Source: Phycisphaerales bacterium
GTDB taxonomy: Bacteria > Planctomycetota > Phycisphaerae > Tepidisphaerales > Tepidisphaeraceae
DNA: 51,394 nucleotides
Reading direction: 5' to 3'
NCBI GenBank assembly: GCA_034666045.1
Contig: JAXDMN010000432.1
Location: 1 to 51,394, forward strand
Positions 2,938 through 25,578 of this stretch are shown piece by piece. The stretch's first letter is position 1, and each line of letters starts with the position of its first letter. The notes under the pieces are model-generated. The model saw nothing but the letters and a program-made list of their open reading frames with translations. It did no database searches and was not told the DNA's origin. A program made the position numbers and the translations under genes.

Positions 2938-3052
2938 GTTGGATAAACCCCTTCGTGTTAGCGACCGAATTGGAAGTGAAGCCCGCAGCCGCGCGCGAAG
3001 CGGCCGGGAATAAGTATACCGAAGCCCGGCGGCGGATGCGCGGGTATGTGGC

Positions 3053-4651
3053 ATGCCGTTCGGACACGTGATCACAGGCAGCTCATTCACACCGATGTGC
3101 GATATGCTGCACTGCATGCAGCGAATTGGCCGGCGGCTGTCGGGGCAACTGCGCGGGATCAGCCCGTTCGCCGGAGACGTCCGGCCCACGCGCGTGCGGC
3201 TTTTTTCACGGGGCTCGCCCGCACCCGCGCTCTCGCCCGCGCTTAGGCCGACGTTGCCGTTTCCGCATCCGTGGAATTATCGCGAGCCGATTCGCATTCT
3301 CGATACTTATTTCCTGGGGGCCGACGCCGAGCAGGGATCGGGGCGGCACAATCGGTATCTCGACGTGCCGGGGTTCGCGCCGGTTTTTGTGACGCGCGAT
3401 CCGCGGATCATTCGCGCGATCGCGACGGAAAGCGGCGATCGGGCGGGGCAGTTTGAGCGGGACACTCTGCCCTCCGGCGGCATCGCGCGGGCGACCGGGA
3501 CGGACACGCTGCTCTACGCCAACGGGCCGATGTGGAAAAGGCAGAAGAAGCTTTCGACACCCCCATTTGGCAGGACGACGCTTTTTCAGCCGGAGCAGTT
3601 TGAGGAATTCTCCAAAACGTTTCGCCAGACGGCCAGGCAACGTCTCGAGGCGATTCATAGACGATTGGAGCGCGCCGCGGCGGGCTGCGCGCTGCGCGTC
3701 CGGCTCGAGCCGGAAATCAAAGCGGTCATGTTGGAAATGCTCGTGAACAATTTTTTCGGCGCGGAGATTTCATATGAGCAAATCCGCGATCGATACGTTC
3801 CCGCTTTGGATCGGGTGATCGAGCACATCGTCTTCGACACGGTCATCAACAAGCTGGGTATCCCGCTCGCGAGGCTGCCGAACTTCAGCCGGGGCATCGT
3901 CGAAACGAAAAAAGCTTCCGCTGCGTTCGATCAGCTCACTGACCTTTGCATCGCAACGCGAAAAGAGGGCAAAGGTCTTTGGAAGCAGTTCAAGTCCGAC
4001 GCGCCGGATCGGCTGTTGCGCAGCAACATAAAAGTCTTTCTCGCGGGCGCGCTCGAGGCGACGACTTCTTATGCGAGCTGGGCGATCTCGCATCTCGCCA
4101 GAAACGCCGCGGCGCAGGAGAAAGTTTTTCACGAGGTGAAAGAGATCGAGGAGTACACGCCGGAAAACCTCGCGAGCGCGAAATTTCTTGGGCATGTGCT
4201 GGACGAGACGCTTCGGCTGACGCCTTCGCTCTACTTCTTTCCGCGCAAGGCGACGGCCGATACGTGGATCGAAACGACGGACGGCAGCAAGCTGATGATC
4301 CCGAAGGGCACGCACATCCTGCTGGATGTCTGGCACGCGAATCGTCACGAGGATCATTGGGGCGTCGCGGTCACGGGTTATCCGGCGATCGATTTCGTCC
4401 CGGAACGGTGGAAGAACGTGACGGCGGACGATCGCGGGTCCAAAGATCTGCTCCATTTCGGTTTCGGCCACGGGCCGCGATTTTGTCCGGGAAAACATCT
4501 GGGACAATTGGAGGTCGGCCTCGTGGTCGGCGCGTTCGTGAAGCTCTTTCGCTTCAAGGCGGTCAACGCTGAGAATCCGGCGCGGGCGGGCGTTTCGACC
4601 AAGCCGGCGGATGGCGTCCTTGTCGAACTGGAATTGCGCGAGACGCACTGA
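3053..4651 (+). CDS. Cytochrome P450
   Basis: Heme-Cys loop FGFGHGPRFCPGKHLG, ExxR (ETLRL), and I-helix AGALEATTS. The start is uncertain, with in-frame ATGs at 3053, 3095, 3104 and 3116. Confidence 0.9.
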   Translation: MPFGHVITGSSFTPMCDMLHCMQRIGRRLSGQLRGISPFAGDVRPTRVRLFSRGSPAPALSPALRPTLPFPHPWNYREPIRILDTYFLGADAEQGSGRHNRYLDVPGFAPVFVTRDPRIIRAIATESGDRAGQFERDTLPSGGIARATGTDTLLYANGPMWKRQKKLSTPPFGRTTLFQPEQFEEFSKTFRQTARQRLEAIHRRLERAAAGCALRVRLEPEIKAVMLEMLVNNFFGAEISYEQIRDRYVPALDRVIEHIVFDTVINKLGIPLARLPNFSRGIVETKKASAAFDQLTDLCIATRKEGKGLWKQFKSDAPDRLLRSNIKVFLAGALEATTSYASWAISHLARNAAAQEKVFHEVKEIEEYTPENLASAKFLGHVLDETLRLTPSLYFFPRKATADTWIETTDGSKLMIPKGTHILLDVWHANRHEDHWGVAVTGYPAIDFVPERWKNVTADDRGSKDLLHFGFGHGPRFCPGKHLGQLEVGLVVGAFVKLFRFKAVNAENPARAGVSTKPADGVLVELELRETH

Positions 4652-4664
4652 GCGGTTTTTCTGA

Positions 4665-5975
4665 TCACAGTCCGTCGATATCGATCGACCCATCGCACGC
4701 CACGCACTGGCCGTCGAAAAGGACGGTCTTTTCTTTTTGAAGATTCGCGACCGACGTGAGCGGGTCGTGGCGGGTGAGGATGAAGCGGGCGCGGTGGCCC
4801 GGCGCGATGCGGCCGATGGGGTCGGGGAAATCGAGCGCGGCGGCGCTGACGCCGGTGGCGGCGTTGATGGCGGCGATCGCGGGGATGCCGGCCTGCTCCA
4901 TCTGGTGCAGCTCGTGCAGCAGGCCGAGGCCGTGCGGCACGCCGCAGGAGCCGGCGTCGCTGCCGGCGACGATTTTCACACCCATCTCGTGGGCGCGGCG
5001 GAGCATTTTCTGATGCGAATCGATGATGCGTTTCAGGTGCCCAACGACTTCGTCGCTCCAGCCTAAATCGCTGGCTCGGTCGATCTGTAACTGCACTGGC
5101 GCGAGCGTCGGCACCCAGGCGATGCCGCGGTCGCGCATTTTTTTCAATTGTTCTTCGGTGATGAAGAAGCCGTGCTCGACGGTGTTGACGCCGCCTTCGA
5201 TGGAGTGCTCGACGCCGTCCGCGCCGGAGGCGTGGGCGAAGGTCTGCCGGCCGAGTTCTCGGGCGGCGGCGACGAGGGCGCGGACTTCCTTGATCGACAT
5301 CTGCGGCGGCGTGGTGACTTGGCCGACCTTGAAATTGATGATGCCGCTGACGAGCAGCTTGATTCGATCCGCGCCGGCGGCGACGCGGGCGGCGACGCAG
5401 TCGGCGGGCGTCGAGAAATCCTCGAGCGGCTCGCCCATGAACGCGCCGTAGCGGCCGCGATGATGGATGGCGGGGCCGGGGCTGTCGATGTAGGGCGTCG
5501 TCGCAAGCTGGCCGATCGACTGTTTCGCGTCGACGGCGAGGGCAAGGCCGACGCCGTGCTTGTCGCCGGCGTCGCGGACCGCGCCGACACCGTGGAATAA
5601 AATCTTTGGCCAGCGGGCGCGGGCGCGGGCGAGCATCCACTGCGGCGATTCCTTCAGGTATTGTTCGCGCAGCTCGAAGCGGACGGGCGCGCCGTCGAGG
5701 AAGAGGTGGGCGTGCGCTTCGATGAGGCAGGGGAGCAGCGTGAAGTCGGGAAGGATCGCATCGGGGTTGGCATCCTGCGCTGCTGAGTGGACCGACACGA
5801 TGTTCATTGCGTCGAAGATGACGTCGACGTTGCGCTGCGGGTGATCGGAAACGCCGTCGATCAGTTGTCCGATGCGCAGGCGGACGGGGCGCTCGGTGGA
5901 GAGGCGAGCGAGGTCCGCGAGGGAAGGGACCGCCGGCTGAAGCCGGGCGGCTTGGCTGGATTGGCTAGTGGTCAT
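4665..5975 (-). CDS. Metal-dependent amidohydrolase family protein
   Basis: HxH motif (IEAHAHLFLDG), later FAHASG, VEHG and AGSDAGSCGVPHG, which together form the amidohydrolase-superfamily metal-ligand pattern. The start ATG at 5975 overlaps the upstream gene's stop by 11 nt. Confidence 0.8.
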   Translation of the reverse strand: MTTSQSSQAARLQPAVPSLADLARLSTERPVRLRIGQLIDGVSDHPQRNVDVIFDAMNIVSVHSAAQDANPDAILPDFTLLPCLIEAHAHLFLDGAPVRFELREQYLKESPQWMLARARARWPKILFHGVGAVRDAGDKHGVGLALAVDAKQSIGQLATTPYIDSPGPAIHHRGRYGAFMGEPLEDFSTPADCVAARVAAGADRIKLLVSGIINFKVGQVTTPPQMSIKEVRALVAAARELGRQTFAHASGADGVEHSIEGGVNTVEHGFFITEEQLKKMRDRGIAWVPTLAPVQLQIDRASDLGWSDEVVGHLKRIIDSHQKMLRRAHEMGVKIVAGSDAGSCGVPHGLGLLHELHQMEQAGIPAIAAINAATGVSAAALDFPDPIGRIAPGHRARFILTRHDPLTSVANLQKEKTVLFDGQCVACDGSIDIDGL

Positions 5976-6948
5976 GGTGGCGGTCGAAAAGTTCGATGAC
6001 TTTCATCGCCTGGCGGAAGCCGGCTTCTTCCTGCGTCTCGCCCTCGGTGGGGCGGCCGGCTTCGAGGGCTTCGGCGATTCCGATGACGAAGCGGTCGTCA
6101 GCGGGAAGCAGGTGGAGATTTTTTTCCGGATTGCCGAGCACGTAATCGAGGCCGGCGCCGACGGCGAGCGTCAGGTAGGCGCTCTCGACGTTTTCGCGAA
6201 TGGCTTTGGGCATGCCGAAGGAGAAATTCGTCAGGCCGACGGAGAGATGCACGCCGGCAAGATCGGGATTGGCGCGGATCCTTTTTATCGCGTCGAGGCC
6301 CATGTTCACGAGGCCGTAGGTATCGGCGCCGACGGGGGCGAGGCCCGGGTCGAGGATGATCTGGTCGTTCGAGCGGCCGGCTTTTTCGCGGAGCATGTGC
6401 ACGAGCTCTTGCGCGGCGGCGTAGACGTCGTCGGCACAGAGGCATTGCGCGCCGCCGCCTTCCACGAATTTTTCTGAAGCCATACCGATGACCATCGTGT
6501 CGTACGAGCGTACGAGCTCGAACATCTCATCGAGATTGTGCCGCGACGCCGCGACCGAGTTCACGATCGGCCGGCCGCTTTTGGAAAAATCGTAGATCGC
6601 GAGGCAGCGGCGGTGAAATTCGGCGCTGGGATTGTCGAACGCGATCGGGCAGCTCGTCGCTTCCTGGATGGCGGGGATGAGGTCAGGCAGCAGGTCGTAC
6701 ATGTCCTGCTGCGTGACGCGCGTCGACTGCGTGCCGTCGATGTTCAGCGTGAGAAAATCCGCCCCGAGGTCGGCCTGGAGCTTGGCGAGCTGCGCGTAGG
6801 CGGCGACGTCACGGTTCTTCCACGCTCGCGCCGCCCGCGCGAACGAGCTGTTGATCAACTCGCCGATCAGCTTGAACGGGCGCTGCGTCGCCTGTGGCGA
6901 CAGGGTCTTTTGCACCGCCTGCACCGTCGTCGGATGAAGCGTGGACAT
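5965..6948 (-). CDS. Stand-alone pterin-binding methyltetrahydrofolate:corrinoid methyltransferase module (MetH Fol-module / AcsE-MeTr-like)
   Basis: FKLIGELINSS...RD...LAKLQADLGADFLTLNID...ILDPGL...SVGLTNFSFG is the Pterin_bind (dihydropteroate-synthase-like) signature. GGAG lies about 10 nt upstream of ATG 6948. Confidence 0.8.
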   Translation of the reverse strand: MSTLHPTTVQAVQKTLSPQATQRPFKLIGELINSSFARAARAWKNRDVAAYAQLAKLQADLGADFLTLNIDGTQSTRVTQQDMYDLLPDLIPAIQEATSCPIAFDNPSAEFHRRCLAIYDFSKSGRPIVNSVAASRHNLDEMFELVRSYDTMVIGMASEKFVEGGGAQCLCADDVYAAAQELVHMLREKAGRSNDQIILDPGLAPVGADTYGLVNMGLDAIKRIRANPDLAGVHLSVGLTNFSFGMPKAIRENVESAYLTLAVGAGLDYVLGNPEKNLHLLPADDRFVIGIAEALEAGRPTEGETQEEAGFRQAMKVIELFDRHHDH

Positions 6949-8539
6949 CGGTTTTTGTCTCCGTGTTGGTTTCGGCTTGCGGACAGCGGGCCGTGTGATC
7001 GCGGCATAAAAGCGCGTTCGCCCAGGACGATGTGCCGCGCAGCGACTCGTCCTGGATCACCGGCGCGTGGTCGAGCATCTCCTGCTCGTGGCCCTCGTAT
7101 TTCATGCGGTCATACGCGCGGCCCCAGATGCATTCGAAGTCGTGGACTTCGCATTTCCCGTCGCGCGTTCCGCCGCACGGGCCGTTGCGCTGGTTTTTCG
7201 CGCACTGCGACTCCGGGCAGAGGAACGCGATGTCCGGCAGCGAACAATCGCCGCAGTCTTTGCAGGAAAACATCGTGGCCTTGCTGGCGTGTTCGAGGAC
7301 GCGCAGGGAGCGAGGCCCCTGAAACGTGTCGCGCGAGTTTTTGTAGATCCACTGGCCGAGGCGATTCAGCGTCGTGCCGGGCGTGAAGACGGCGTCGTGG
7401 ACGAATTTGCTGACGCGGTAGTTGAGGGTGACGTTCTTTGTTGGACGGCGGCGACGCAGGGAAGCTTCGTACGCGGGCTCGAGACGATCGGGATCGGCGA
7501 GACCGGTCTGCTCGTTGCGCGCGTAGTAGTAAAATTCGTTTTCGACCGGGTACTGGATCTCGCGGGCGAACTGTTTCCAGTCGTCGCGCGCGAACGAGCG
7601 CTCGATGTCGAGAATCGATTCGACGTCTTCGATGCGATGCACGCCACCGAGATATCCGCCCGCGAAGCCGAGACCGCGGAAGATCGCGAGCTGCTTCGCG
7701 GCGAGCTCGCGGAAGAATTTCTGTCCCTTGTCGGGGCTGGCCGCGTTCTTCTCGCAGATGGCGAAAAGTGAATCACTGATCACGACGCCGGGAATGGTGC
7801 GCTTGCGGAAGAATCGTGCGACGGCGGCGGTGAGGAGATAGACGTTTCCGATCAGCGGCACGCGCTCCGCGGCGATCTTCGGGCGCGTCTGCATGTAGCA
7901 GAGCATTTCGTGGCTCTTGCGCGCGTCGAAGCCGATCTGCCCGATGATGAACCGCGCGCCGCACTCGATCTTCTTTTCGAGCTTCAGCAGTTGCGGGACG
8001 ACTTCGTTCTCATGCTTCTTGAAATTCGTCGCCACCGCGCCCGCGAAGAAATTCGTCGCGGCGGCCTGCGTCTGCTCAGAGCGGCCCAGCTTCGGACGCG
8101 ACAGGCCGCGGTTCATCTCGTCGAGCATCGTCAGCAGGCCGATCGAATCGATGTCGAAGACCGGCTTGCCGCGGCCGTGGTACCCGGCGGCGGGGTAGTC
8201 GCCGCTGAGGGCGAGAATGTTGTGGAATCCTTCGCTCGCCAGCTCCCACGCCGCGCTCTCAAGGCCGTTGCGGTTGAAATCTTTACAGGAGAGGTGGATG
8301 AGGACTTCTTTGCCCGCGTAAAGGATGGGCTTGCCCAAGGCCATCGGCGAGAGCTGCGGATTCCCGCCCGCGTTGTCGGTGATCGAGACCCAGTCGATGG
8401 CCGCCGCCTGCACCAGTTGCGTTGCAAATGCCCGTGTAAGCTGGGCTTGCCGATCTTCCATGCTCCCGCGGGTAGAGACTAATTCCACGCCGAGCAAGAA
8501 GCCGGTACGATCGGCGAGCTTTTCGCGCAGGGTGTACAT
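6809..8539 (-). CDS. metF: Methylenetetrahydrofolate reductase fused to an MTHFR_C (MetV-like, Cys-rich) domain
   Basis: The N-terminal roughly 300 aa are MTHFR-like (VELVSTRG..., WVSITDNAGGNP, IHLSCKD, ILALSGDYP). The C-terminal part carries CKDCGDCSLPDIAFLCPESQCAKNQRNGPCGGTRDGKCEV. The last roughly 95 aa look low-complexity and overlap the next gene by 140 nt. Confidence 0.85.
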   Translation of the reverse strand: MYTLREKLADRTGFLLGVELVSTRGSMEDRQAQLTRAFATQLVQAAAIDWVSITDNAGGNPQLSPMALGKPILYAGKEVLIHLSCKDFNRNGLESAAWELASEGFHNILALSGDYPAAGYHGRGKPVFDIDSIGLLTMLDEMNRGLSRPKLGRSEQTQAAATNFFAGAVATNFKKHENEVVPQLLKLEKKIECGARFIIGQIGFDARKSHEMLCYMQTRPKIAAERVPLIGNVYLLTAAVARFFRKRTIPGVVISDSLFAICEKNAASPDKGQKFFRELAAKQLAIFRGLGFAGGYLGGVHRIEDVESILDIERSFARDDWKQFAREIQYPVENEFYYYARNEQTGLADPDRLEPAYEASLRRRRPTKNVTLNYRVSKFVHDAVFTPGTTLNRLGQWIYKNSRDTFQGPRSLRVLEHASKATMFSCKDCGDCSLPDIAFLCPESQCAKNQRNGPCGGTRDGKCEVHDFECIWGRAYDRMKYEGHEQEMLDHAPVIQDESLRGTSSWANALLCRDHTARCPQAETNTETKTDVHASSDDGAGGAKDPVATGDAAPVQADRRVDQQLVRAGGASVEEP

Positions 8540-8594
8540 GTCGAGCTTGGGGCGACGTCAATGAAGAGGAAACGGTTTGGCGTTTAGTCTAATC

Positions 8595-8619
8595 ATTGTA
8601 TACAATAATTGTATACAAT
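8595..8619. promoter_or_regulatory. Two tandem perfect 12-bp palindromes, ATTGTATACAAT-A-ATTGTATACAAT; candidate operator in the divergent control region
   Basis: Read directly at 8595-8606 and 8608-8619. It is an AT-rich patch in a GC-rich 194-bp intergenic region between divergent starts at 8539(-) and 8734(+). Confidence 0.45.
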
Positions 8620-8733
8620 AAATCCTTGAAAGCGGCCGCTCAGGTCAGTATCAACAGTTGTAACTTCTTCAGCCAAGCCAAGTAACTCGCTGTTTGACAG
8701 GGTTGTAAATAACACCGGAAAGGGAACGAACGC

Positions 8734-9798
8734 ATGTTGCCGCAGCAATGGGAGACCTACAAGCAGGCCGCCCGCCTCGAAAAGCTCGACAAGATCCCCA
8801 TGGCGCTCATCATCGACAGCCCGTGGATCCCCGGCTACCTCGGCATCCAGCACCTCGACTACTTCCTTGATCCGGAACTCTGGTTCGAGTCCAACCTGAA
8901 GATCATGCGCGAGTTCCCGGACATCATCTTCGTCCCTTCCTGGTGGATGGAGTACGGCATGGCCGCCGAGCCGTCGATCCTGGGGGCGAAGATCAAGTTC
9001 TGGCAGGACAACACGCCCAGTGAATACCACCGGCTCGATCGCCTGGAAGACATCGATAACCTCCCGGAATATGAAGTCGAAGCGGACGGCTTCGCCGCGC
9101 TGACGCTGCATCGATACAAGATGCATAAGCAGCGGATCCTCGACGCCGGTTATGTATTCCCGTTCGTCACCGCGCGCGGGCCGCTCTGCACGGCCGGGTT
9201 CGTGCGCAGCACGACGCATTTCATGATCGACCTCGTGGAGAGCCCGGAAGGGGCGCACAAGCTGATCGACCTCTGCACGCGCGTGGTCATCGACTGGCTG
9301 AAAGCGCAGCACAAGGTGCTCGGCGACAGCGTCGAAGGGATCTTCGTCCTCGACGACATCGTCGGCTTCATCAACGAAGAGCACTACATGGAATTCGCGC
9401 ACCCGTACCTCAAGCGCATCTGCGATGCGTTCCCGAAGGACTGGGTGAAGCTCTATCACAACGATGCGGAGGTCGACGCTTGCCTGGATCATCTGCCTGA
9501 CGCCGGCTTCAACGTGCTCAACTGGGGCAAGCAGAAGCACATCAGCGAAGTCAAAGAGCGCGTCGGCGATCGCATGTGCCTGATGGGGAATGTGAACCCG
9601 CTGGAAGTCGGCGTGCGCGGCACGCCGGAGGAAGTGAAGGAAGCGACTCACGATGCGCTGGAGCACGGCGCGGCGGACGGGAAAGGGATGATCCTTTCCG
9701 TCGGCGGCGGTACGAGCCCGGGGATGCCGCGGGAAAATATCGTCGCGATGCTGGAAGCGCTGGAAGAGTTTAATTCGAAGAAGTTCAGCCAGGTTTGA
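8734..9798 (+). CDS. Uroporphyrinogen-decarboxylase (URO-D) family methyltransferase (MtaA/CmuA-like corrinoid-dependent methyltransferase)
   Basis: About 350 aa with a URO-D fold pattern (PWIPGYLG..., FVTARGPLCTAGF, FVLDDIVGFI, MGNVNPLE, ILSVGGGTSPGMPRENI). It sits immediately upstream of a corrinoid protein gene. Confidence 0.75.
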   Translation: MLPQQWETYKQAARLEKLDKIPMALIIDSPWIPGYLGIQHLDYFLDPELWFESNLKIMREFPDIIFVPSWWMEYGMAAEPSILGAKIKFWQDNTPSEYHRLDRLEDIDNLPEYEVEADGFAALTLHRYKMHKQRILDAGYVFPFVTARGPLCTAGFVRSTTHFMIDLVESPEGAHKLIDLCTRVVIDWLKAQHKVLGDSVEGIFVLDDIVGFINEEHYMEFAHPYLKRICDAFPKDWVKLYHNDAEVDACLDHLPDAGFNVLNWGKQKHISEVKERVGDRMCLMGNVNPLEVGVRGTPEEVKEATHDALEHGAADGKGMILSVGGGTSPGMPRENIVAMLEALEEFNSKKFSQV

Positions 9799-9826
9799 AG
9801 AACCAGGAACAAACGCGGAGTTCTAA

Positions 9827-10807
9827 ATGCCCGATTACGCCCTGATGAATCAATACCTCTACGAGGGCAAGGCCAAGGAAGTCGAGCAGATGACCAAGGA
9901 CGCCCTGGCGGAGGGGCGGCACTATCAGGAAGTGCTCACCGAAGGCCTGATCGCCGGCATGAGCGTCGTTGGCGAGGATTTCAAGCACAACATTTTGTAC
10001 GTGCCCGAAGTGCTGATCGCTGCGCGCGCGATGAAGGCGGGCATGAGTGTGCTCAAGCCGCTGCTGAGCGCGAAGGACAACACCACGCCGCGCATCGGCA
10101 CGCTGCTGATGGGGACCGTCCGCGGTGACCTGCACGACATCGGAAAAAATCTTGTCTGCATGATGGCCGAGGGCGCCGGATTCGAAGTCCTCGATATCGG
10201 CGTCGACCAGAGCCTCGAAAAGTTCATGGCAGCCGCGGACAAGTGCAATCCGACGATCATCGGCATGAGCGCGCTGCTGACGACGACGATGACCTACATG
10301 AAAACGGTCATCGACGGCTTCCAGGCGGCGGGGCGGACCAACATCAAATTCGCCGTCGGCGGTGCGCCGATCAGTCAGATGTTCGCCGACGAAATCGGCG
10401 CCGATGGTTACGGTCAAAACGCCTCGGCGGCGGTCGACCTGTTCCATCGCCTCGCGCGCGGCGAAGCGGCGCCCGCTGCGGCGCCGGCCGCGCCGGCTCA
10501 GGTTCGCGGTTCCACTAATGGCGACGGCGCTGCCAGGGACGGCAAGGTCACGACGTTCAAGGTGCTCTACTGGCAGGAGATTCCCTCGCAGGTGAAGGCG
10601 GAGGACGATGCCGGCAATGAAGTCTCGATTGAGCTCGCGCCAAAGTTCATGGAACGCATCGACTTCGTCGCGGCGCAGCGCGGCGTCAAGACCGGTGACG
10701 AATATCTCGCTCATTGGAAGTGGAGCGACGACGCGCAGCGCCCTGGCTCCGCGCGCGCCGTCGCGGATGCAGTCAAAGCGGAACTCGAATCGAAAGCAAC
10801 CTGGTAG
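9827..10807 (+). CDS. Cobalamin-binding corrinoid protein (B12-binding_2 cap + B12-binding Rossmann domain) with an extra C-terminal domain of about 110 aa
   Basis: DxHxxG...SxL...GG signature: GDLHDIGKN, MSALLTTT, FAVGGAPI. GGAG lies 9 nt upstream of the ATG. The C-terminal part VTTFKVLYWQEIPSQVKAED... resembles the 'Virulence_fact' domain that I recall being associated with B12-binding proteins. Confidence 0.85.
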   Translation: MPDYALMNQYLYEGKAKEVEQMTKDALAEGRHYQEVLTEGLIAGMSVVGEDFKHNILYVPEVLIAARAMKAGMSVLKPLLSAKDNTTPRIGTLLMGTVRGDLHDIGKNLVCMMAEGAGFEVLDIGVDQSLEKFMAAADKCNPTIIGMSALLTTTMTYMKTVIDGFQAAGRTNIKFAVGGAPISQMFADEIGADGYGQNASAAVDLFHRLARGEAAPAAAPAAPAQVRGSTNGDGAARDGKVTTFKVLYWQEIPSQVKAEDDAGNEVSIELAPKFMERIDFVAAQRGVKTGDEYLAHWKWSDDAQRPGSARAVADAVKAELESKATW

Positions 10808-10821
10808 TGCTCGCTCGTTTT

Positions 10822-10893
10822 ATTTAGCCACGTCGCTTGCGACGTGCGTTCTGCAGCTGACGGTTACGCGCGTCGCAAGCGACGTGGCTAAAT
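10822..10893. repeat. Perfect 23-bp inverted repeat with a 26-nt spacer, between the corrinoid protein and RACo genes
   Basis: Arms are ATTTAGCCACGTCGCTTGCGACG (10822-10844) and CGTCGCAAGCGACGTGGCTAAAT (10871-10893). Each arm contains its own mini-palindrome CGTCGC-TT/AA-GCGACG. No T-run follows. Confidence 0.85.
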
Positions 10894-10911
10894 GAGTGCG
10901 TGGTGTCTCGT

Positions 10912-12567
10912 ATGTCTGTAACGCTCACCATCAACGGACGCTCGACCGACGCATCTGCGGGTACGTCGATCTTCGAGCACGCGGAACTGCTGGGGGTTCA
11001 GGTCCCCACCTCCTGTCGCAAGAACGGGAAGTGCAAGGAGTGCATCGTCGAGGTGACCAGCGGGATGGAACTGCTCACCCCGCACACCGAGCACGAACAA
11101 CACCTGAAGGACAAGTTTCGACTCTCCTGCCAATCCCGCGTGATCCCGGACGCGCCCGCGGGCGAAGTGAAATGCCACACCATGCGCCGCGGACAGATGC
11201 GCATCGAGCGGCACGCCCTCGGCTTGCCTCTTCGCGAAAAACTCCAACTCGAACCGACCGTCACCCGCGACGGCGACCGCATTCTCATCGATGGCGTCGA
11301 AGTCGATCGCAGCATTCTTCCCATCCACGGCATCGCGATGGACCTCGGCACCACCACGTGCGTTCTGCGCCTGATCAATCTCGAGACCGGCGAGCTCGTC
11401 GCCGACGCGTCGTTCGAGAATCCGCAGCGTTTTGGCGGCTCCGACGTGATGTCGCGCATCCATTATGACACGACCGTCGGAAAGCATCTTCTGATGCGCA
11501 CGCTCGCCGGGTATCTCACGCACGCGATCGACGCGTTTCCGGTCGATCCGAAAACAATTTACGAAATGGTCGTCGTCGGCAATTCAACGATGCGTGACAT
11601 GTTCTTCCGACTCGACGTCTACCCGATCGGGCAGACGCCTTATCGATCGATCACCGAGATCGAGATGGCGGAGGGAAAGCGCACGACCACGAGCGTGACC
11701 ATGACCGGCCGGCAGGCATTGTTGCCGATCAATCCCAAGGCGCGCGTCTACGGCGCGCCGATCATCAGCGGCCACGTCGGCGCGGATGCGGCGGCGTGCA
11801 TGCTGGCGATCGATCTCGCGCACGAAAGCCGCCTCGTGGCGGTCATGGACATCGGCACGAACACGGAGCTGATCCTCGGCAACCGCGAGCGGATCGTCGC
11901 CGCGTCATGTCCGGCGGGTCCGGCGTTTGAAGGCGGGGCGATCTCGTGCGGCATGCCCGGGCTCGACGGCGCGATCGAAGACGTCGCGATCGATGACGCC
12001 GACGGCTCGATCAAGCTCGGCGTCATCGGTGACGTGCCGCCCGAAGGGATCTGCGGCTCCGGCCTGGTCGAGCTGATGAGCGAGCTGCTTCGCACCGGAA
12101 AGATGAACGAGTACGGCCGATTCGAAGACGGTGAATCGCGCGTCACGCTCGACGCGCCGCGCGACATTTTCTTTCTCGAGAGCGACGTGAACGAGCTCGC
12201 ACAGGCGAAAGGCGCGAACGTCGCGGGCTTGCAGGTCGTTTTCAGCAATTACGGGTTGGACTTCGACGACATCGACGTCTTTTACCTCGCCGGCGGGTTC
12301 GGGCGGCATCTCGACATCGCGGCGTCGAAGCGCATCGGGCTGATCCCGAATATTCCGGATGAAAAGATCGTGCAGGTTGGCAACGCAGCGATCGAAGGGG
12401 CGTGCATCGCATTGCTGTCGAAGACGAAGCGGCGCGAGCTGGAAGAACTCGTGCGGCGCGTCGAGCACTGCCGCCTGGAGACGCATCCGCAGTTCTTCGA
12501 TTTCTTCGTCGAAGGGTGTCAGTTCAAGCCGGTCGAGACGGCGCATTCGGAGGTCGTGTCCGAATGA
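10912..12567 (+). CDS. RACo-type ATP-dependent reductive activator of corrinoid proteins (N-terminal 2Fe-2S ferredoxin + ASKHA/DUF4445 domain)
   Basis: MSVTLTINGRS...SCRKNGKCKECIV...LSCQ gives the Cx5Cx2C...C 2Fe-2S pattern. ASKHA phosphate motifs are AMDLGTTT and VMDIGTNTE, with GICGSG also present. I prefer ATG 10912 over the track's GTG 10900. Confidence 0.85.
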   Translation: MSVTLTINGRSTDASAGTSIFEHAELLGVQVPTSCRKNGKCKECIVEVTSGMELLTPHTEHEQHLKDKFRLSCQSRVIPDAPAGEVKCHTMRRGQMRIERHALGLPLREKLQLEPTVTRDGDRILIDGVEVDRSILPIHGIAMDLGTTTCVLRLINLETGELVADASFENPQRFGGSDVMSRIHYDTTVGKHLLMRTLAGYLTHAIDAFPVDPKTIYEMVVVGNSTMRDMFFRLDVYPIGQTPYRSITEIEMAEGKRTTTSVTMTGRQALLPINPKARVYGAPIISGHVGADAAACMLAIDLAHESRLVAVMDIGTNTELILGNRERIVAASCPAGPAFEGGAISCGMPGLDGAIEDVAIDDADGSIKLGVIGDVPPEGICGSGLVELMSELLRTGKMNEYGRFEDGESRVTLDAPRDIFFLESDVNELAQAKGANVAGLQVVFSNYGLDFDDIDVFYLAGGFGRHLDIAASKRIGLIPNIPDEKIVQVGNAAIEGACIALLSKTKRRELEELVRRVEHCRLETHPQFFDFFVEGCQFKPVETAHSEVVSE

Positions 12568-13865
12568 TCGAGCTGGTCGACACGCTTCCGGACATCAACG
12601 TGCAGCCTGCTGAATACAAGCGGCTGCTCGGGTATCCGCGCGATCGCGTGCTCGAGGGACGGGCTCGCGAATTGGCCGAGGGCGCGCGCGAATGGTACGC
12701 GAAATTCGGCCGCCCGTGGGTCTACGCCCGGCAGGCGGAGACGCTCGAGATCACCAACGGCTCGATCTGCATCGACGGCGTCTCGTTCACGAGCAAGAAA
12801 CTCCAGAATACGCTTCAGCAGGCGGAGGCGAATAGCGCGATCCTCGTCGCCGTCAGCGCGGGGCCGCAGGTCGAAGCGGAAGCGCAGAAGCTGTGGCTCG
12901 AAGAGAAGCCGGACGAGTATTTTTTTCTGGAGATCTTCGGATCGGCGGTCGTCGAACATCTCATCACCATCACCGGCGCGCGCTTGTGCGCGTGGGCGGA
13001 AGGCCGGCGCCTCGCGGTGCTGCCGCACTACTCGCCCGGCTATCCGGAATGGGACATTTCCGAGCAGGGGAAGCTGCTCGAGCTGATGTGCCGCACGCGG
13101 GAGCACGCGTTCCCATGCGATCTCGAAGTGCTCGACTCCGGCATGCTGCGGCCCAAAAAATCGTTGCTCGCGGTGTTCGGCCTGACGGCGAAGACGGAGC
13201 ACGTCCGTCGGCTGACGGATCTCGTGCCGTGCGACAATTGCTCGTTCACGCCGTGCCAGTATCGCCGCTCGCCCTACGTGCGAATGGGTGAATATGCCCG
13301 CATCGAAGTCGCCGCGCGCGGCGACGACGTTCCGGAAGAAGACGTGATTCCCGCCGCGCCGCCCACGCTCGATCCAGCGGCGAAATATTCGGTCAATGCC
13401 AAAGCGCTGAAGCGCTGGGCGGACGAGCGGCTGACGCTCGCGATGAAGCCGGACGGCACCATCGACGCGCTCTTCCGCTATGAAGGCTCGACCTGCACGA
13501 ACATGGGACGATCGATCCAGTTTCATTACCATGTGAAGCTCGGCCCGCGCGAAGAGGGCTACCCGATTCGCGAGCAGCGTTGCGGCCCCGCGCCGGGCGA
13601 CACCGGGCACACCTACATGTGCCGCTACATGAACAACGCCGAGCATTTGATGGTCGCAATAGAGCAGGAGAAACCGCTGATCGGCCAGCCGCTGAACGAC
13701 GTGCTCGCGTGGTCGCGAATCAGCACCGGGGCCGCGTGCTATTGCGAGCCGGCGAGCCGCAAGCATAAATGGGGGCTTGTGCTCGAAACGATCCATTACG
13801 CGCTCGTGCAGGAAGAGAAACGCCGCGCGCTGGAAAACGTCCCGCAGGAAATCACCGCACCATGA
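12564..13865 (+). CDS. MetH activation-domain (Met_synt_B12) homologue with a C-terminal extension of about 190 aa of unknown function
   Basis: Start at ATG 12564 within ATGA, overlapping the RACo stop. HYSPGYPEWDISEQGKLLELM and MLRPKKSLLAVFG resemble the AdoMet-binding reactivation module of MetH. A CDNCSFTPC motif follows, then about 190 further residues that I cannot assign. Confidence 0.7.
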   Translation: MIELVDTLPDINVQPAEYKRLLGYPRDRVLEGRARELAEGAREWYAKFGRPWVYARQAETLEITNGSICIDGVSFTSKKLQNTLQQAEANSAILVAVSAGPQVEAEAQKLWLEEKPDEYFFLEIFGSAVVEHLITITGARLCAWAEGRRLAVLPHYSPGYPEWDISEQGKLLELMCRTREHAFPCDLEVLDSGMLRPKKSLLAVFGLTAKTEHVRRLTDLVPCDNCSFTPCQYRRSPYVRMGEYARIEVAARGDDVPEEDVIPAAPPTLDPAAKYSVNAKALKRWADERLTLAMKPDGTIDALFRYEGSTCTNMGRSIQFHYHVKLGPREEGYPIREQRCGPAPGDTGHTYMCRYMNNAEHLMVAIEQEKPLIGQPLNDVLAWSRISTGAACYCEPASRKHKWGLVLETIHYALVQEEKRRALENVPQEITAP

Positions 13866-14776
13866 GCAAGCCGCCGTTACTCGAAGCACTGAAATCCCGC
13901 CCGCTCCTCGGCGACGGCGCGATGGGCACGCAGCTCATGATCGCCGGCCTCGAACAGGGCAACTGCGGCGAGCTGTGGAACCTCACGCAACCGGAGCGCG
14001 TGCTCGGCATCCAGCGCCGCTACGCGGAGGCGGGCAGCGACTGCATCCTGACCAACACGTTCGGCGGCAGCCGCATCATGCTGAACCGCCACGGCGTCGC
14101 CGACAACATCGTAGAGATCAATGCCGCCGGCGTGCGCATCGTGCGGCAGGCGTTCGAAGCAGTCGGCCGCGACGGATACGTCATCGGCGACATCGGCCCG
14201 TTCGGCGGGTTGATGGAACCGTATGGCGAGTTCACCGAGGACCAGGTTCGAGCAGCGTTCGTCGAGCAGGCGAAGGCGCTCGTCGACGCCGGCGCCGATG
14301 CGATCATCATCGAGACGCAGACCGGCCTGGAAGAACTTGGCATCGCCATCGCCGCCGCCAAAGAAGCGGGCGCCGCCTGCATCATCGGCTCGATGGCGTA
14401 CGACGTGACGCTGGACGGCTCGACCTTCCGCACCATGATGGGCATCGACCCGGAGCGGGCGGCGGAGTTCATGCAGGACGAAGGCGCGCATGTCGTCGCG
14501 CTCAACTGCGGCACCGGCATGGACATGCCGCACGCGCGCGAAGCCATCGAGCGCTACCGGCAAACGACCGGCCTGCCGGTCATGGCGCAGCCCAACGCGG
14601 GACAGCCGAAACTGATCGACATGAAAGTGGTTTACGACGAAACGCCGGCCGAGATGGTCAAGGGCGTCGTGCCGATGCTGGAGTCGGGGACGAACATCCT
14701 CGGCGGCTGCTGCGGCAGCACGCCGGACCATATCCGCGCGTTTCGAAAAGCAATGGATGAGTACTTGAAGGCGTGA
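13862..14776 (+). CDS. Stand-alone homocysteine S-methyltransferase (Hcy-binding) module
   Basis: Start at ATG 13862 within ATGA, overlapping the upstream stop. LGDGAMGTQL, ILTNTFG, and the Zn-ligand motifs ALNCGTG and GGCCGSTPDHI are present. Confidence 0.85.
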   Translation: MSKPPLLEALKSRPLLGDGAMGTQLMIAGLEQGNCGELWNLTQPERVLGIQRRYAEAGSDCILTNTFGGSRIMLNRHGVADNIVEINAAGVRIVRQAFEAVGRDGYVIGDIGPFGGLMEPYGEFTEDQVRAAFVEQAKALVDAGADAIIIETQTGLEELGIAIAAAKEAGAACIIGSMAYDVTLDGSTFRTMMGIDPERAAEFMQDEGAHVVALNCGTGMDMPHAREAIERYRQTTGLPVMAQPNAGQPKLIDMKVVYDETPAEMVKGVVPMLESGTNILGGCCGSTPDHIRAFRKAMDEYLKA

Positions 14777-14884
14777 GTGCATCGTGGCTTGGGCGTCTCG
14801 CCCGAGCGTGTTCGCACCAGCGGCTGGCCGCCGCGATTCCTCGGGCAGGATGCCCAAGTCACGGTGAAGAAACGGAAATAGAGA

Positions 14885-15214
14885 ATGAAACAGAAACTCT
14901 GCGACGTCAATCAAGCCGCCGAAGAAAAGCTCCCGCCGAAGACGGAGGACAAGTCCGGCATCGGCGTGCACTTCATCGACGCGTACATCAAGCCGATGAA
15001 CGCAAAACTCGCCGACGGCACCGCCGTGAAGGCGAAGCGGCGCGGCCTGAAGATCACGCTGCAGGTCGGCACGAAGAAGGGCGACGGCATCATGCGCCGA
15101 CTGGAAGTCAGCCGTGACCCAAAGATCATGCTCCCCGCCGCCCTCCAGGAAGCCGCGAAGAACGCCGGCATCGAGCTGGCGATCGAAGAGGGGGCGATCT
15201 ACGTCACCGCCTGA
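14885..15214 (+). CDS. Small hypothetical protein (109 aa)
   Basis: ATG-initiated ORF with balanced, Lys-rich composition, unlike the R/A/G-rich shadow ORFs. A hairpin terminator region follows. No family recognised. Confidence 0.5.
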   Translation: MKQKLCDVNQAAEEKLPPKTEDKSGIGVHFIDAYIKPMNAKLADGTAVKAKRRGLKITLQVGTKKGDGIMRRLEVSRDPKIMLPAALQEAAKNAGIELAIEEGAIYVTA

Positions 15215-19422: not shown

Positions 19423-22107
19423 TTGCGAAAGCATCCGAGGATTCGTTCATCCGCGAAACAGCGGCAGGGGAACGGCAGCCGCGACCGGCAAACATCGCGC
19501 TCGCCTGCCGGTCGCTTCAACGGCAAATCCGCCAACCCGGATGCGCAGCGATCGTCGCCGACGACGAAGTCCGGCCGGCATGATGGCTTCGTCGAGGTCC
19601 GCGGTGCGCGGGAGCACAACCTGAAGAATATTGACGTCCAGATGCCCCGCGATTCTTTGGTCGTCTTCACGGGGGTTTCAGGGAGCGGAAAATCATCGCT
19701 CGCCTTCGGCACGCTCTACGCCGAGGCGCAGCGGCGATACCTGGAATCGGTGAACCCGTACGCCCGGCGACTGTTCCATCAAATGTCGCCGCCGCAGGTG
19801 GACGAAATTGACGGCCTGCCGCCGGCGGTGGCGCTCCAGCAGCAGCGGGGGACGCCGACGACGCGATCGAGCGTCGGCAGCGTCACGACGCTCTCGAACC
19901 TGCTCCGCATGCTCTATTCCCGCGCCGGCGATTACCCGCCGAGCCAGTCGATTCTGTACGCCGAGTCATTCTCGCCCAACACGCCCGAAGGCGCATGTCC
20001 GACGTGTCACGGCCTCGGTCGCATCTACGACGTGACCGAGAAATCGATGGTGCCGGACGACACGAAGACGATCCGCGATCGCGCCATCGCCGCCTGGCCG
20101 GTCGCGTGGCAGGGCCAGAACCTGCGCGACATCGTGACGACGATGGGCATCGACATCGACAAGCCGTGGCGCGAGCTGCCGAAGAAAACGCGCGATTGGC
20201 TGCTGTTCACAGATGAGCAGCCGCAGGTTCCGGTCTACGCCGGCTGGGACATGGACGAAGTCCGCCGCGCCATCAAGCGCAAGGAAGAGCCGAGCTACAT
20301 GGGGACGTTCACCGGCGCGAAGAAGCACGTCTTGCAGTCGTTCGCGACGACGCAAAGCGCGATGATGAAGCGGCGTGTGGCGCAGTTCATGGTGAGCACG
20401 GAATGTCCGGAGTGTCACGGCAAACGGCTGCGGCGCGAGGCGCAGCGGGTGAAGTTCGAGGGCCTCGACATCATGGAACTCTCCCGGCTGCCGCTCAAGC
20501 GTCTCGATGCCATCTTTCGCCCCTGCGCCGACGGCACCGGTCCGCGCTGCGCGAAGCTGGAGGCGAAGCACCCGGAGAAGGCGGAGGTCACACGCCGCAT
20601 CTCGGAAGATCTGATCGCCCGACTCTCCGTGATGCTCGACCTTGGTCTCGGGTATCTGACGCTGGACCGCAGCACGCCGACCTTGTCGCCGGGCGAGCTG
20701 CAGCGCTTGCGGCTGGCGACGCAGGTGCGATCGAATCTGTTCGGCGTGGTCTACGTGCTGGATGAGCCGTCGGCGGGGCTGCATCCGGCGGATACGGAAG
20801 CGCTGCTCGGCGCGCTTGACGGACTCAAAGCGTCGGGCAACTCGCTCTTCGTCGTCGAGCACGAGATCGATGTGATCCGTCACGCCGACTGGATCGTCGA
20901 CGTCGGCCCGGCGGCGGGGGAACACGGCGGCGAGATCCTTTACAGCGGCCCGCCGGATGGTTTGAAACGCGTCGAGCAATCGGAGACGCGCCGGTATCTC
21001 TTCGGCGATTATGTGTTGCCCGAGCGCACGCCGCGGAAACCCAAGGGGTGGCTGAAGCTCACGGGCGTCACGCGGAACAACCTGGAAAAACTCGACGTCG
21101 CATTCCCGCTCGGCGTGATGACGTCCGTCACCGGCGTTTCGGGCTCCGGCAAGTCGAGCCTCGTCAGCCAGGTGCTGCCGGAACTGGTCGCGGATCATCT
21201 CGGGCACAACCTCGAGCAGGACGAGGAAGACGTCGCCGATCTTGAGCACACGCCGGTCGAAACGCTCGGCGGGCACATCGTCAGCGGCATCGAAGAGATC
21301 AAGCGTCTCGTGCGAGTCGACCAGAAACCGATCGGCCGCACGCCGCGGTCGAACCTCGCGACGTACACCGGCCTCTTCGACTACGTGCGCAAAATCTTCG
21401 CCGACACGAAAGCCGCCCGCGCGCGAAAGTACGACGCCGGTCGGTTCTCCTTCAACGTCGCGAAGGGCCGCTGTGAAAATTGCGAGGGCGAAGGGTTCGT
21501 GATGGTCGAACTGCTGTTTTTGCCCAGCGTCTACGCGCCGTGCCCCGTTTGTCACGGCTCGCGCTACAACGCGAAGACGCTTGAGATCACGTATCGCGAT
21601 AAGAACATCGCTGAAGTGCTCGGCCTGACCGTCGACGCCGCGTATGAATTTTTCGCCGACGAGCCGCACCTGCATCGCTCGCTCGACGTCCTCCGCCAGG
21701 TCGGCCTGGGCTATCTTCGTCTCGGCCAGCCCGCGACGGAATTATCCGGCGGCGAAGCGCAGCGAATAAAACTTGCAACCGAGCTGCAACGAATGAGCCG
21801 CGGCAACACACTGTACATTCTGGACGAGCCGACGACGGGCCTGCATCCGAGCGACGTGGAAAAACTCGTCGCTCAGCTTGACGGCCTGGTCGAGGCGGGC
21901 AACACCGTGATCGTCGTCGAGCACGATATGCGCGTGGTCGCGCACAGCGACTGGACGATCGACATGGGCCCCGGCGCGGGCGATGAGGGCGGCCACATTG
22001 TGGTTTCCGCTCCACCCGTCGAGGTATCTAAATCTTCCCGTAGCCGCACCGCACCGTATTTGCGGCGGTTTTTGGAGGACGCCGGGCAACCCGTCGCGGC
22101 CGCGTAG
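19423..22107 (+). CDS. uvrA2: Class II UvrA paralogue (excinuclease ABC subunit A-like ATPase lacking the UvrB-binding domain)
   Basis: [16 protein letters not shown], two Walker A motifs ([10 protein letters not shown] twice), two ABC signatures ([18 protein letters not shown]), and Zn modules [33 protein letters not shown]. The segment between LYSRAG and CPTCHG is only about 25 aa, whereas canonical UvrA inserts its UvrB-binding domain of about 130 aa there. The only canonical in-frame start is TTG 19423, which gives a basic leader of about 55 aa. Confidence 0.9.
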
Positions 22108-24468: not shown

Positions 24469-25578
24469 GTGACAATCAGATCGGGCGGGTATCGTCCGGT
24501 CATGATCATGGAATTGAAATCGCCACCGTCATTCACCACGGCAGAAGACCGCTGGCAGGCCGTGCAGTCGCGCGACGTCGACGCCGACGGGAAGTTCGTC
24601 TACTCGGTAAAGACGACCGGCGTCTATTGCCGGCCGTCTTGTGCGGCGCGGCGGGCGCGGCGGGAGAACGTTGAGTTTCATCGGACGCCCGCGGACGCCG
24701 AGCGCGCCGGATTCCGGGCGTGCAAGCGATGCAAGCCTGCTGATCCCAATGCCGGCGACGAGCACGCGGACGCCGTTACCAGGGCGTGCAAATTGATCGA
24801 GGCCGCCGACGAGACGTGGGACGTCGACACCCTCGCCGCCGACGTCGGCATGAGCGCGTCGCACTTTCATCGAGTCTTCAAATTGCAGACCGGCTTGACG
24901 CCCAAGGCGTATGCGACCGCGCATCGGGCCCGCCGGGTCCGTGACGAGCTCGCGCACGGCGAGAGCGTCACGTCCGCCATCTACAACGCCGGCTTCAATT
25001 CCAATGGCCGCTTCTACGCGACGTCGACGAAGACGCTTGGCATGAAGCCATCGACCTTCCGCGCCGGCGGCGCCGGCGCGACGATTCGCTTTTCGGTCGG
25101 CGAGTGTTCGCTCGGCTCGATCCTCGTCGCTGTGTCTGAGATCGGCATCTGCGCGATCTCGCTTGGCGATGATCCCGAGGAACTGGTGAAGTGGCTGCAG
25201 GATCGCTTCCGCAAAGCGGAGTTCATCGGCAGCGACAAGGAGTTCGAAAAACTCGTCGGGAAGGTCATCGCCTTCGTCGAGCGCCCGGCGATCGGCCTGA
25301 AGCTGCCGCTCGACGTGCGAGGCACCGCGTTTCAGCAGCGGGTTTGGCAGAAACTGTCAGAGATCCCTTGCGGAACGACGCGCACGTACTCCGACATCGC
25401 CGCCGAGCTGGGCATGCCGAAGTCGACTCGCGCCGTCGGCCAAGCATGCGGCGCCAACCCGATCGCCGTCGCCATTCCGTGCCATCGCGTCGTTCGCACC
25501 GATGGCTCGCTCTCCGGCTATCGCTGGGGCATCGCGCGCAAGGCGAAGCTGCTGAAATCCGAACGCGGCACAAGCTGA
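24469..25578 (+). CDS. ada: Bifunctional Ada: methylphosphotriester-DNA methyltransferase/AraC-type activator + O6-methylguanine-DNA methyltransferase
   Basis: N-terminal Zn cluster CRPSC...CKRCKP, an AraC HTH (SASHFHRVFKLQTGLTPKAY), and the C-terminal active site IPCHRVV. The track start is GTG 24469. ATG 24502 or 24508 (MELKSPP...) is more consistent with Ada N-termini. Confidence 0.9.
   Translation: MTIRSGGYRPVMIMELKSPPSFTTAEDRWQAVQSRDVDADGKFVYSVKTTGVYCRPSCAARRARRENVEFHRTPADAERAGFRACKRCKPADPNAGDEHADAVTRACKLIEAADETWDVDTLAADVGMSASHFHRVFKLQTGLTPKAYATAHRARRVRDELAHGESVTSAIYNAGFNSNGRFYATSTKTLGMKPSTFRAGGAGATIRFSVGECSLGSILVAVSEIGICAISLGDDPEELVKWLQDRFRKAEFIGSDKEFEKLVGKVIAFVERPAIGLKLPLDVRGTAFQQRVWQKLSEIPCGTTRTYSDIAAELGMPKSTRAVGQACGANPIAVAIPCHRVVRTDGSLSGYRWGIARKAKLLKSERGTS

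Follow-up and report, generated by a model that had tools for sequence, protein, structure and literature searches.

A 51,394-nucleotide stretch of DNA from a Phycisphaerales bacterium of the family Tepidisphaeraceae (GenBank assembly GCA_034666045.1, contig JAXDMN010000432.1), referred to here as the window, carries a gene cluster that probably encodes a multi-protein methyl-transfer hub built around one B12 (corrinoid) carrier, a reading to which we give a probability of roughly 0.6. The domain identities, the gene order, its conservation and the fusions between the parts were observed directly, and from these we infer the chemical steps and the direction of methyl flow. Generally, the carrier would cycle between Co(I) and CH3-Co(III), being loaded from methyl-tetrahydrofolate (methyl-THF) by a pterin-binding methyltransferase and from a second donor, a candidate O-methyl compound, by a methyltransferase of the URO-D superfamily. 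A zinc-dependent homocysteine methyltransferase (HcyMT) would then take the methyl group from the carrier to form methionine and, where the folate module is present, methyl groups might also pass reversibly to tetrahydrofolate (THF). The carrier, when oxidised to Co(II), would be rescued by a two-part machine consisting of the activase RACo and a protein named here P7. The architecture is a variation on the known split design of the methionine synthase MetH and not a new category; this design has already been described in roseobacters and Sinorhizobium, while several parts of the soil version are undescribed.

Layout and conservation of the cluster

The window has a G+C content of ~63%, and its nearest relatives are annotated as Tepidisphaeraceae, the closest being Humisphaera sp., with 99% identity for one small protein. 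A first-pass annotation of the window had claimed eight open reading frames (ORFs) for the cluster, arranged as two divergent operons, and all eight are present (Table 1), with the products of seven exceeding curated Pfam cut-offs and P7 (12564–13865) as the exception. Its central claim, that the modules of MetH are each found on a protein of their own, was borne out by five separate ORFs on two strands; S-methyl_trans passes for the product of 13862–14776 and Pterin_bind for that of 5965–6948, and both domains of the proposed fusion between methylenetetrahydrofolate reductase (MTHFR) and MTHFR_C, at 8539–6809, also pass in Pfam. The admixture of demethylase-type components was likewise recovered, as the URO-D protein is of the methyltransferase I (MT I) type and the pterin protein is nearest to an O-demethylase methyltransferase II (MT II). 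The finer details agree as well, including the divergent control region of 194 bp between the MTHFR start (8539, minus strand) and the URO-D start (8734, plus strand), the ATGA start/stop overlaps at 12564–12567 and 13862–13865, the 11-nt overlap of the amidohydrolase and pterin genes (5965–5975), and the motifs GDLHDIGKN, SALL, GG, ALNCG and GGCCGSTP, all of which are readable in the translations. Beyond that gene list, the cluster contains a ninth conserved gene and a PF13769 domain on the corrinoid protein. The ORF at 14773–15117 was rejected as the ninth gene, as it is in the wrong frame, the real gene being located at 14885–15214.

Table 1. Genes and control region of the proposed methyl-transfer cluster in the window
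Feature	Position	Strand	Basis
Amidohydrolase, 436 aa	4665–5975	-	Amidohydro_1 E=1e-24; last gene of the minus-strand operon
Stand-alone pterin-binding methyltransferase (methyl-THF <-> corrinoid), MT II / MtgD type	5965–6948	-	Pterin_bind E=5e-16
MTHFR (MetF) fused to a Cys-rich MetV-like C-terminal domain, PF12225	6809–8539	-	MTHFR E=2e-12; MTHFR_C (DUF5981) E=4.5e-24
Divergent control region, 194 bp	8540–8733	.	Two copies of the palindrome TTGTATACAA (8596–8605, 8609–8618)
URO-D-superfamily methyltransferase, MT I type	8734–9798	+	URO-D E=4e-40
Corrinoid (B12) carrier: cap and Rossmann domain, DxHxxG motif	9827–10807	+	B12-binding_2 (PF02607) E=1.5e-17; B12-binding (PF02310) E=6e-25
RACo/RamA-type ATP-dependent reductive activase: 2Fe-2S ferredoxin, middle and ASKHA domains	10900–12567	+	Fer2 E=2e-10; RACo_middle E=4e-33; RACo_C_ter E=3e-73
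P7: N-terminal ~240 aa homologous to TM0269/MetH reactivation domain, C-terminal ~165-aa Cys4 domain	12564–13865	+	Family profile; fold predicted with AlphaFold2 (AF2)
Stand-alone homocysteine S-methyltransferase (HcyMT), Zn(Cys)3 site, MtgE/Bmt-like	13862–14776	+	S-methyl_trans (PF02574) E=2e-62; ALNCG and GGCCG motifs
Small conserved protein, 109 aa, ninth gene	14885–15214	+	77% identical to the product of the gene after HcyMT in L001

A scan of one genome per species for relatives of P7, made with a 12-sequence P7 alignment, returned at least 519 loci, and the window proteins were mapped onto the best 80 of these together with loci obtained by exact-protein look-up (loci are numbered L001 and so on). 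The order URO-D, corrinoid protein, RACo, P7, HcyMT and small protein is found again, with hardly an exception, in more than 80 genomes belonging to Planctomycetota, Acidobacteriota, Gemmatimonadota and Methylomirabilota. Hosts include Tepidisphaerales, Lacipirellulaceae, many Acidobacteriota (Terracidiphilus, Granulicella, Bryobacteraceae and Vicinamibacterales) and one Methylomirabilota metagenome-assembled genome (MAG), and the operon is also carried by the cultured Gemmatirosa kalamazoonensis KBS708, on its plasmid 1 of 1.1 Mb. The cluster genes are kept together across genomes, a point that the first-pass annotation had proposed to check in the Planctomycetota-Verrucomicrobiota-Chlamydiota (PVC) group, and the cluster extends beyond that group. 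All six plus-strand proteins share 60–88% identity across phyla, and the operon moves as a unit, since its flanks differ between lineages.

In addition, three fusions join parts of the system. One is the corrinoid protein::PF13769 fusion of the window itself, and the other two are found in L002, a distant relative of the operon. In L002, URO-D and B12-binding domains are united in a protein of 645 aa (2950–4887) with a CmuA-like architecture, the URO-D part of which is 22% identical to that of the window, and RACo is united with P7 in a protein of 948 aa (P0173, 4924–7770). These two fusion proteins are encoded side by side and are followed by HcyMT and the small protein.

The carrier, its methyltransferases and its proposed repair

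The corrinoid domain of the carrier shares 49–53% identity with alphaproteobacterial MtgC-type proteins and only 32% with MetH and 32–37% with CmuA. At its C-terminus, an Ala/Pro linker leads to a PF13769 'Virulence_fact' domain (aa 248–322, E=1e-11). The window, L001, L020 and Gemmatirosa all have this domain on the carrier itself; it is encoded separately in L014, L021 and L084–L086, in the last three (L084, L085 and L086) as a gene of 85 aa. The fused domain is 36% identical to the S. meliloti 'virulence factor' protein encoded beside metV-metF-mtgD, a protein of 100 aa which itself belongs to PF13769 (E=6.5e-27). This module of ~85–100 aa recurs in corrinoid methyltransferase clusters (window, 9827–10807; L088, 12891–13193; L084, 8065–8325). 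As a gene of its own, it stands between those of carrier and RACo in acidobacterial loci, and in S. meliloti it precedes metV-metF-mtgD. 'Virulence factor' looks like a misnomer for the family, and because PF13769 is not mentioned in the studies of the Phaeobacter and Ruegeria systems (PMC5764234 and PMC12478193), it seems to have been overlooked as a component of such systems.

The URO-D protein is the most conserved member of the set, with 80–86% identity across phyla, and its gene is found in the operon in ~70 loci, while the pterin methyltransferase gene is adjacent in only ~13. Its match to the MtaA/CmuA family in NCBIfam (E=4e-27) is below the family cut-off, and its best PDB relative is, weakly, the chloromethane methyltransferase CdmB (E=4e-10). 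When aligned to M. mazei MtaA (4AY7), the H-x-C...C residues of MtaA, which we take to be its zinc ligands, fall on H242-N-D244...G325, so that the thiol-activating zinc site is absent from the URO-D protein. Its identification as an MtaA/MtbA-type thiol methyltransferase was rejected on this unmatched zinc motif and on NCBIfam scores far below the cut-offs. Orthology with CmuA was rejected too, there being no tblastn hit at E<=1e-5 in a plasmid collection that includes the cmuA plasmid NC_011758.1, and a seemingly divergent URO-D paralogue in L006 turned out to be a frameshift artefact of a long-read MAG. Among the characterised bacterial systems summarised in PMC13222342, proteins of the URO-D superfamily act as MT I enzymes, each specific for its donor, and the THF side is served by pterin-binding enzymes. 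The URO-D protein is therefore read here as the methyltransferase of the donor side.

On the folate side, the pterin protein matches NCBIfam PRK07535 (E=4e-33), and its best PDB relative is the D. hafniense O-demethylase MT II (4O0Q/4O1E, E=7e-16), ahead of MeTr and of the folate module of MetH; the ATG at 6948 as the start of its gene is backed by the orthologue in L016. The MTHFR ORF overlaps this gene by 140 nt (6809–6948) in another frame, and the overlapping tail of ~60 aa is low-complexity, not conserved and absent from orthologues such as that in L008. The MetF-MetV fusion protein may either make or consume methyl-THF, linking it to methylene-THF. The amidohydrolase, translationally coupled to the pterin methyltransferase, is of the Xaa-Pro dipeptidase/carboxypeptidase type, with the Xaa-Pro dipeptidase 2QS8 (E=1e-34), ochratoxinase-like amide hydrolases and the Arg carboxypeptidase Cc2672 as its best PDB relatives, and it accompanies the pterin methyltransferase and MTHFR in every locus that has a folate module. 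The trio of MTHFR, pterin methyltransferase and amidohydrolase is adjacent and divergent in Tepidisphaerales and lies nearby in other orientations in three acidobacterial loci (L052, L054 and L069).

The HcyMT matches the N-terminal half of PRK08645 in NCBIfam (E=1e-72) and also the S. meliloti-type 'betaine-homocysteine MT' PRK07534 (E=2e-63), the latter below the curated cut-off. It stands within the operon in all loci with an intact downstream flank except one, L010 of a Humisphaera sp. MAG, in which URO-D, carrier, RACo and P7 are present and neither HcyMT nor the small protein is found within 10 kb downstream. Methionine would be the output conserved in nearly every genome. The gene for the 109-aa protein is also present in nearly all loci, and every one of its 2906 homologues is annotated as hypothetical. 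Its AF2 model has a pLDDT of 84 and no fold match in the PDB, and homology with a 112-aa hypothetical protein of S. meliloti was considered and rejected.

Two proteins might be involved in keeping the carrier active. RACo matches AcsV (E=5e-93) and RamA (E=2e-47) in NCBIfam, both below curated cut-offs, and would pass an ATP-driven electron from its 2Fe-2S domain to Co(II). P7 taken alone had no match in Pfam, NCBIfam or a single-sequence search of the PDB, even at E<=10, and this includes Met_synt_B12 (PF02965). It had been called a homologue of the MetH activation domain, a description which applies to the N-terminal ~240 aa, by profile and by predicted fold, and does not apply to the C-terminal half. 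A 48-sequence profile of the P7 family matched Thermotoga TM0269 (1J6R) with E=9.5e-14 over positions 6–217, and the reactivation domain of Thermus MetH with E=0.015. The AF2 model (pLDDT 89) superposes on 1J6R (Foldseek TM 0.83, E=8e-10) and also on the MetH reactivation domains of E. coli, human and Thermus. A relationship of P7 to DUF1638 was rejected, the hhalign probability against the S. meliloti DUF1638 protein being 0.1%. Residues ~270–433 form a second, confidently modelled domain, in which C311, C353, C392 and C394 are invariant across the family; Foldseek found no PDB fold match for it, and the C-terminal half is a new domain. The family, with 3946 matches in a word-indexed search and 1264 clusters at 50% identity, is unannotated.

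The S-adenosylmethionine (AdoMet) domain of MetH is known to bind the B12 module in its cap-off state (PMC10293825), and the reactivation domain of P7 might hold the cap-off carrier in the same way. Moreover, P7 may trap Co(I) by methylation with AdoMet, which would protect Co(I) in oxygen-exposed cells, and its Cys4 domain may bind a metal or an iron-sulfur cluster or be a redox site. The co-occurrence of RACo with an activation-type domain, another claim of the first-pass annotation, proved real, as the two genes are joined by the ATGA overlap in the window, are adjacent in every locus examined and are fused in L002. To our knowledge, ATP-driven and MetH-type reactivation have so far been treated as alternatives; the RACo::P7 fusion, a physical coupling of the two repair principles, suggests that they cooperate.

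Comparison with known systems

The closest functional precedents come from marine and rhizobial Alphaproteobacteria. In Phaeobacter, fitness genetics revealed a three-part methionine synthase that also depends on a RamA-like activase and a protein of the family DUF1638 (Price et al. 2018, PMC5764234). In Ruegeria, MtgC (corrinoid protein) and MtgD (pterin methyltransferase) take part both in methionine synthesis, with MtgE, and in glycine betaine demethylation, with the MttB-family protein MtgB; on methylated substrates MetF2 was strongly induced, more than any other protein (Mausz et al. 2025, PMC12478193). Mutant studies in both genera place a carrier of this kind in methionine synthesis as well as in demethylation (PMC12478193, PMC5764234). 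In S. meliloti, the annotated locus comprises bmt, an MttB-family gene, genes for a cobalamin-binding protein and DUF1638, a PF13769 gene, MTHFR_C, MTHFR, a methyl-THF:cobalamin methyltransferase and an ASKHA activase.

With this MtgBCDE hub, the present cluster shares a separate HcyMT of the MtgE/Bmt type, an MtgC-type carrier, an MtgD-type pterin methyltransferase and a RamA/RACo activase. Like the S. meliloti locus, it also has its own MTHFR, with a MetV-like part, and a protein of the family PF13769. One carrier would likewise serve several methyltransferases, although here this is suggested by the genes. The cluster differs in that the donor slot is occupied by the URO-D protein, with no MttB-family (PF06253) MtgB among the cluster ORFs, and in that no cluster ORF has a DUF1638 (PF07796) hit, the unrelated P7 being in its place. 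PF13769 is fused to the carrier and MetF to MetV, whereas all of these are separate genes in S. meliloti; an amidohydrolase and the 109-aa protein are added, the operons are compact, and the hosts are soil Planctomycetota, Acidobacteriota and Gemmatimonadota.

MetH itself has a zinc-homocysteine module, a pterin module, a His-on B12 module (DxHxxG...SxL...GG) and a reactivation-domain fold in common with the cluster. Unlike MetH, the cluster has no single polypeptide; its pterin and B12 modules are nearer to demethylase-type proteins, Met_synt_B12 has no match, the Arg of RxxxGY is replaced by His, the ATP-dependent RACo is added, and P7 has an extra Cys4 domain. A reactivation domain on a separate protein is also known from Thermotoga TM0268/TM0269.

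The O-demethylase and dehalogenase systems of anaerobes (Odm, Vdm, Mtv, and CdmBCA with its activating enzyme; PMC13222342) resemble the cluster in combining a URO-D MT I, a corrinoid protein, a pterin MT II and a RACo-type activase. The URO-D protein of the cluster is only distantly related to theirs, as its E value of 4e-10 to CdmB indicates, and HcyMT and a MetH-type reactivation domain are integral here. At least some hosts of the operon are aerobes by published description, unlike the anaerobes that harbour Odm, Vdm, Mtv and CdmBCA. The CmuA/CmuB chloromethane pathway also has a URO-D-type methyltransferase, a corrinoid domain, a pterin methyltransferase and a dedicated MetF2, and the URO-D::B12 fusion of the distant relative L002 is CmuA-like; in contrast, CmuA is a single fused protein, its counterparts here are separate genes, and the corrinoid domains share the modest identity given above. 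CmuA binds zinc. Membership of the clostridial mlp gene clusters was rejected, as those have multiple Mlp paralogues, anaerobic hosts and no HcyMT (PMC10418091).

Regulation, neighbouring genes and competing explanations

The duplicated palindrome TTGTATACAA in the divergent control region is probably a repressor operator. Its two copies are the only matches in the 51-kb window, with 0.06 expected, and it also occurs upstream of the URO-D gene in four Tepidisphaeraceae loci (L001, L005, L008 and L016). Three other loci of Phycisphaerae (L006, L007 and L085) have AGTAAACG[CT]TTAC upstream of URO-D instead, which presumably resembles LacI-family operators, and the upstream palindrome of acidobacterial loci is GATATTGTTGT...ACAACAATATC. 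In the acidobacterial loci L029, L032, L035 and L073, GATATTGTTGT..GGTACAACAATATC was seen upstream of the operon. Since lineages carry different palindromes before the same operon, the regulator seems to have been swapped between them. Rfam detected no SAM or cobalamin (B12) riboswitch in the control region. Repressor-type control without a riboswitch is weak evidence; it would suit a system that responds to its substrate somewhat better than it would a housekeeping methionine synthase.

Flank ORFs were clustered for 85 loci and, after the genes of the cluster itself, the most recurrent family was GH67 alpha-glucuronidase, present in 8 loci that span Tepidisphaeraceae, Acidobacteriota, Bryobacteraceae and Lacipirellulaceae. 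CE15 glucuronoyl esterase and GH115 alpha-glucuronidase were each found in 6 loci, and the gene immediately upstream of URO-D in Gemmatirosa encodes the D-mannonate dehydratase UxuA, which is also encoded beside GH67 in L049. Further recurrent neighbours are altronate/galactarate dehydratases, IlvD/Edd sugar-acid dehydratases, GFO/MocA oxidoreductases, GH2, GH43 and MFS transporters, and no methionine or B12 biosynthesis genes were seen among the flank neighbours. At least one uronate-specific neighbour occurs in ~20 of 87 loci; as a rough estimate, chance would place one within 10 kb in a few per cent of loci (given a few copies of such genes per 5–6 Mb genome), and the loci are not phylogenetically independent.

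GH67, GH115 and CE15 all act on the 4-O-methylglucuronyl side chains of xylan, and for this reason the 4-O-methyl ether of glucuronate is a candidate for the second donor. The glucuronoxylan/uronate neighbourhood hints at an O-methyl sugar-acid donor, which is a lead and not a result. In its specific form, it would make URO-D and the carrier a corrinoid O-demethylase for 4-O-methyl-D-glucuronate or a derived sugar acid from glucuronoxylan, with the corollary that RACo and P7 would be a new ATP-dependent, possibly also AdoMet-dependent, repair machine by which aerobes sustain Co(I) chemistry; we regard this proposal as tentative and doubtful. Several points speak against it: URO-D is absent from the four loci in which GH67/CE15 lie closest to the operon, an alkyl methyl ether is a more difficult substrate than an aryl ether, and the phyla concerned are rich in genes for carbohydrate-active enzymes, which makes such neighbours more frequent by chance. 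No paper on demethylation of 4-O-methylglucuronate by a corrinoid system came up in a literature search. Methoxy-aromatics derived from lignin are an alternative donor, and Acidobacteriota of Stordalen Mire reportedly express genes for the demethylation of methoxylated compounds (PMC10805028).

That expression in Acidobacteriota also counts in favour of the cluster being mainly a catabolic demethylase, in which URO-D demethylates an environmental O-methyl compound, the methyl group passes to THF and is oxidised via the pterin methyltransferase and reverse MTHFR, and methionine is a side outlet. All four components of such systems (MT I, corrinoid protein, MT II and activating enzyme) are present, the pterin protein is closest to an O-demethylase MT II, MetF2 of Ruegeria is induced on methylated substrates, and the upstream palindromes are of the repressor type, including those taken to be LacI-like. 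We nevertheless consider this explanation unlikely, as, with a single exception, every locus with an intact downstream flank has HcyMT within the operon, where the THF module is usually absent, and as no genes of one-carbon (C1) oxidation (folD, purU, fhs) were seen in the window. Quite improbable in our view is the opposite extreme, a housekeeping split methionine synthase in which URO-D works, unusually, as a methyl-THF:corrinoid methyltransferase, the plus-strand operon with its six genes replaces MetH in full, and pterin methyltransferase, MTHFR and amidohydrolase have a separate folate function and are merely nearby in Tepidisphaerales. Such a role would account for URO-D being in the operon far more often than the pterin gene is adjacent to it, for its top conservation, which fits a core part and not a substrate-specific plug-in, and for its lack of a thiol-activating zinc site. 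It is at odds with the characterised URO-D corrinoid enzymes, which are donor-specific MT I, and with the bacterial THF-side enzymes, which are pterin-binding (PMC13222342). Moreover, linkage of the pterin/MTHFR module to the operon is seen in two phyla, in varied arrangements, and in the window both share one operator region; there is no SAM or B12 riboswitch, and the neighbours belong to sugar-acid catabolism and not to methionine or B12 synthesis.

Chance juxtaposition of unrelated B12, folate and hydrolase genes is hardly credible. The amidohydrolase and the small protein have no assignable role, as chance would allow, but more than 80 genomes from four phyla keep the gene order despite different flanks, genes of the cluster overlap at their start and stop codons, and three independent fusions link the parts, so that synteny and fusions already contradict it. 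The reading as a methyl-transfer hub around one carrier is itself faced with three difficulties: most acidobacterial loci have no pterin methyltransferase within 10 kb, four acidobacterial loci have no URO-D gene in the operon, and the use of AdoMet by P7 is uncertain because its motif HYSPGY has His in place of the Arg of the RxxxGY found in MetH and TM0269. In acidobacterial loci without a nearby pterin gene, the folate branch may be encoded elsewhere or be dispensable.

The operon is widespread, and many of its hosts rank among the dominant Acidobacteriota and Planctomycetota of soil and peat. Should it serve them as B12-dependent methionine synthase or as a route for scavenging methyl groups, the annotation of B12 demand and C1 flow in soil changes accordingly. 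The cluster also provides a functional context for three uncharacterised families, namely P7, the 109-aa protein and PF13769. The xylan link offers a testable answer to the fate of the 4-O-methyl group on xylan side chains; if 4-O-methylglucuronate is indeed the donor, soil bacteria would capture a plant methyl ether as methionine or methyl-THF instead of losing it.

Other genes were seen in the window outside the cluster. A cytochrome P450 gene (3053–4651, plus strand) directly adjoins the amidohydrolase gene; it was rejected as a part of the system, since it stands beside the cluster in no other locus, and is probably unrelated. A protein-arginine-deiminase-like gene is located at 22243–24429 on the plus strand (PAD E=1e-30), and the plus-strand ORFs at 24469–25578 and 19423–22107 include an Ada-type methylphosphotriester/O6-methylguanine methyltransferase regulator and a UvrA-like ABC ATPase. 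On the minus strand, an ORF of 6357 aa (31948–51021) contains many RTX calcium-binding nonapeptide repeats, with two segments matching HemolysinCabind (E=5.5e-49 and 7e-36), and its product is probably a giant secreted or adhesin-like protein.

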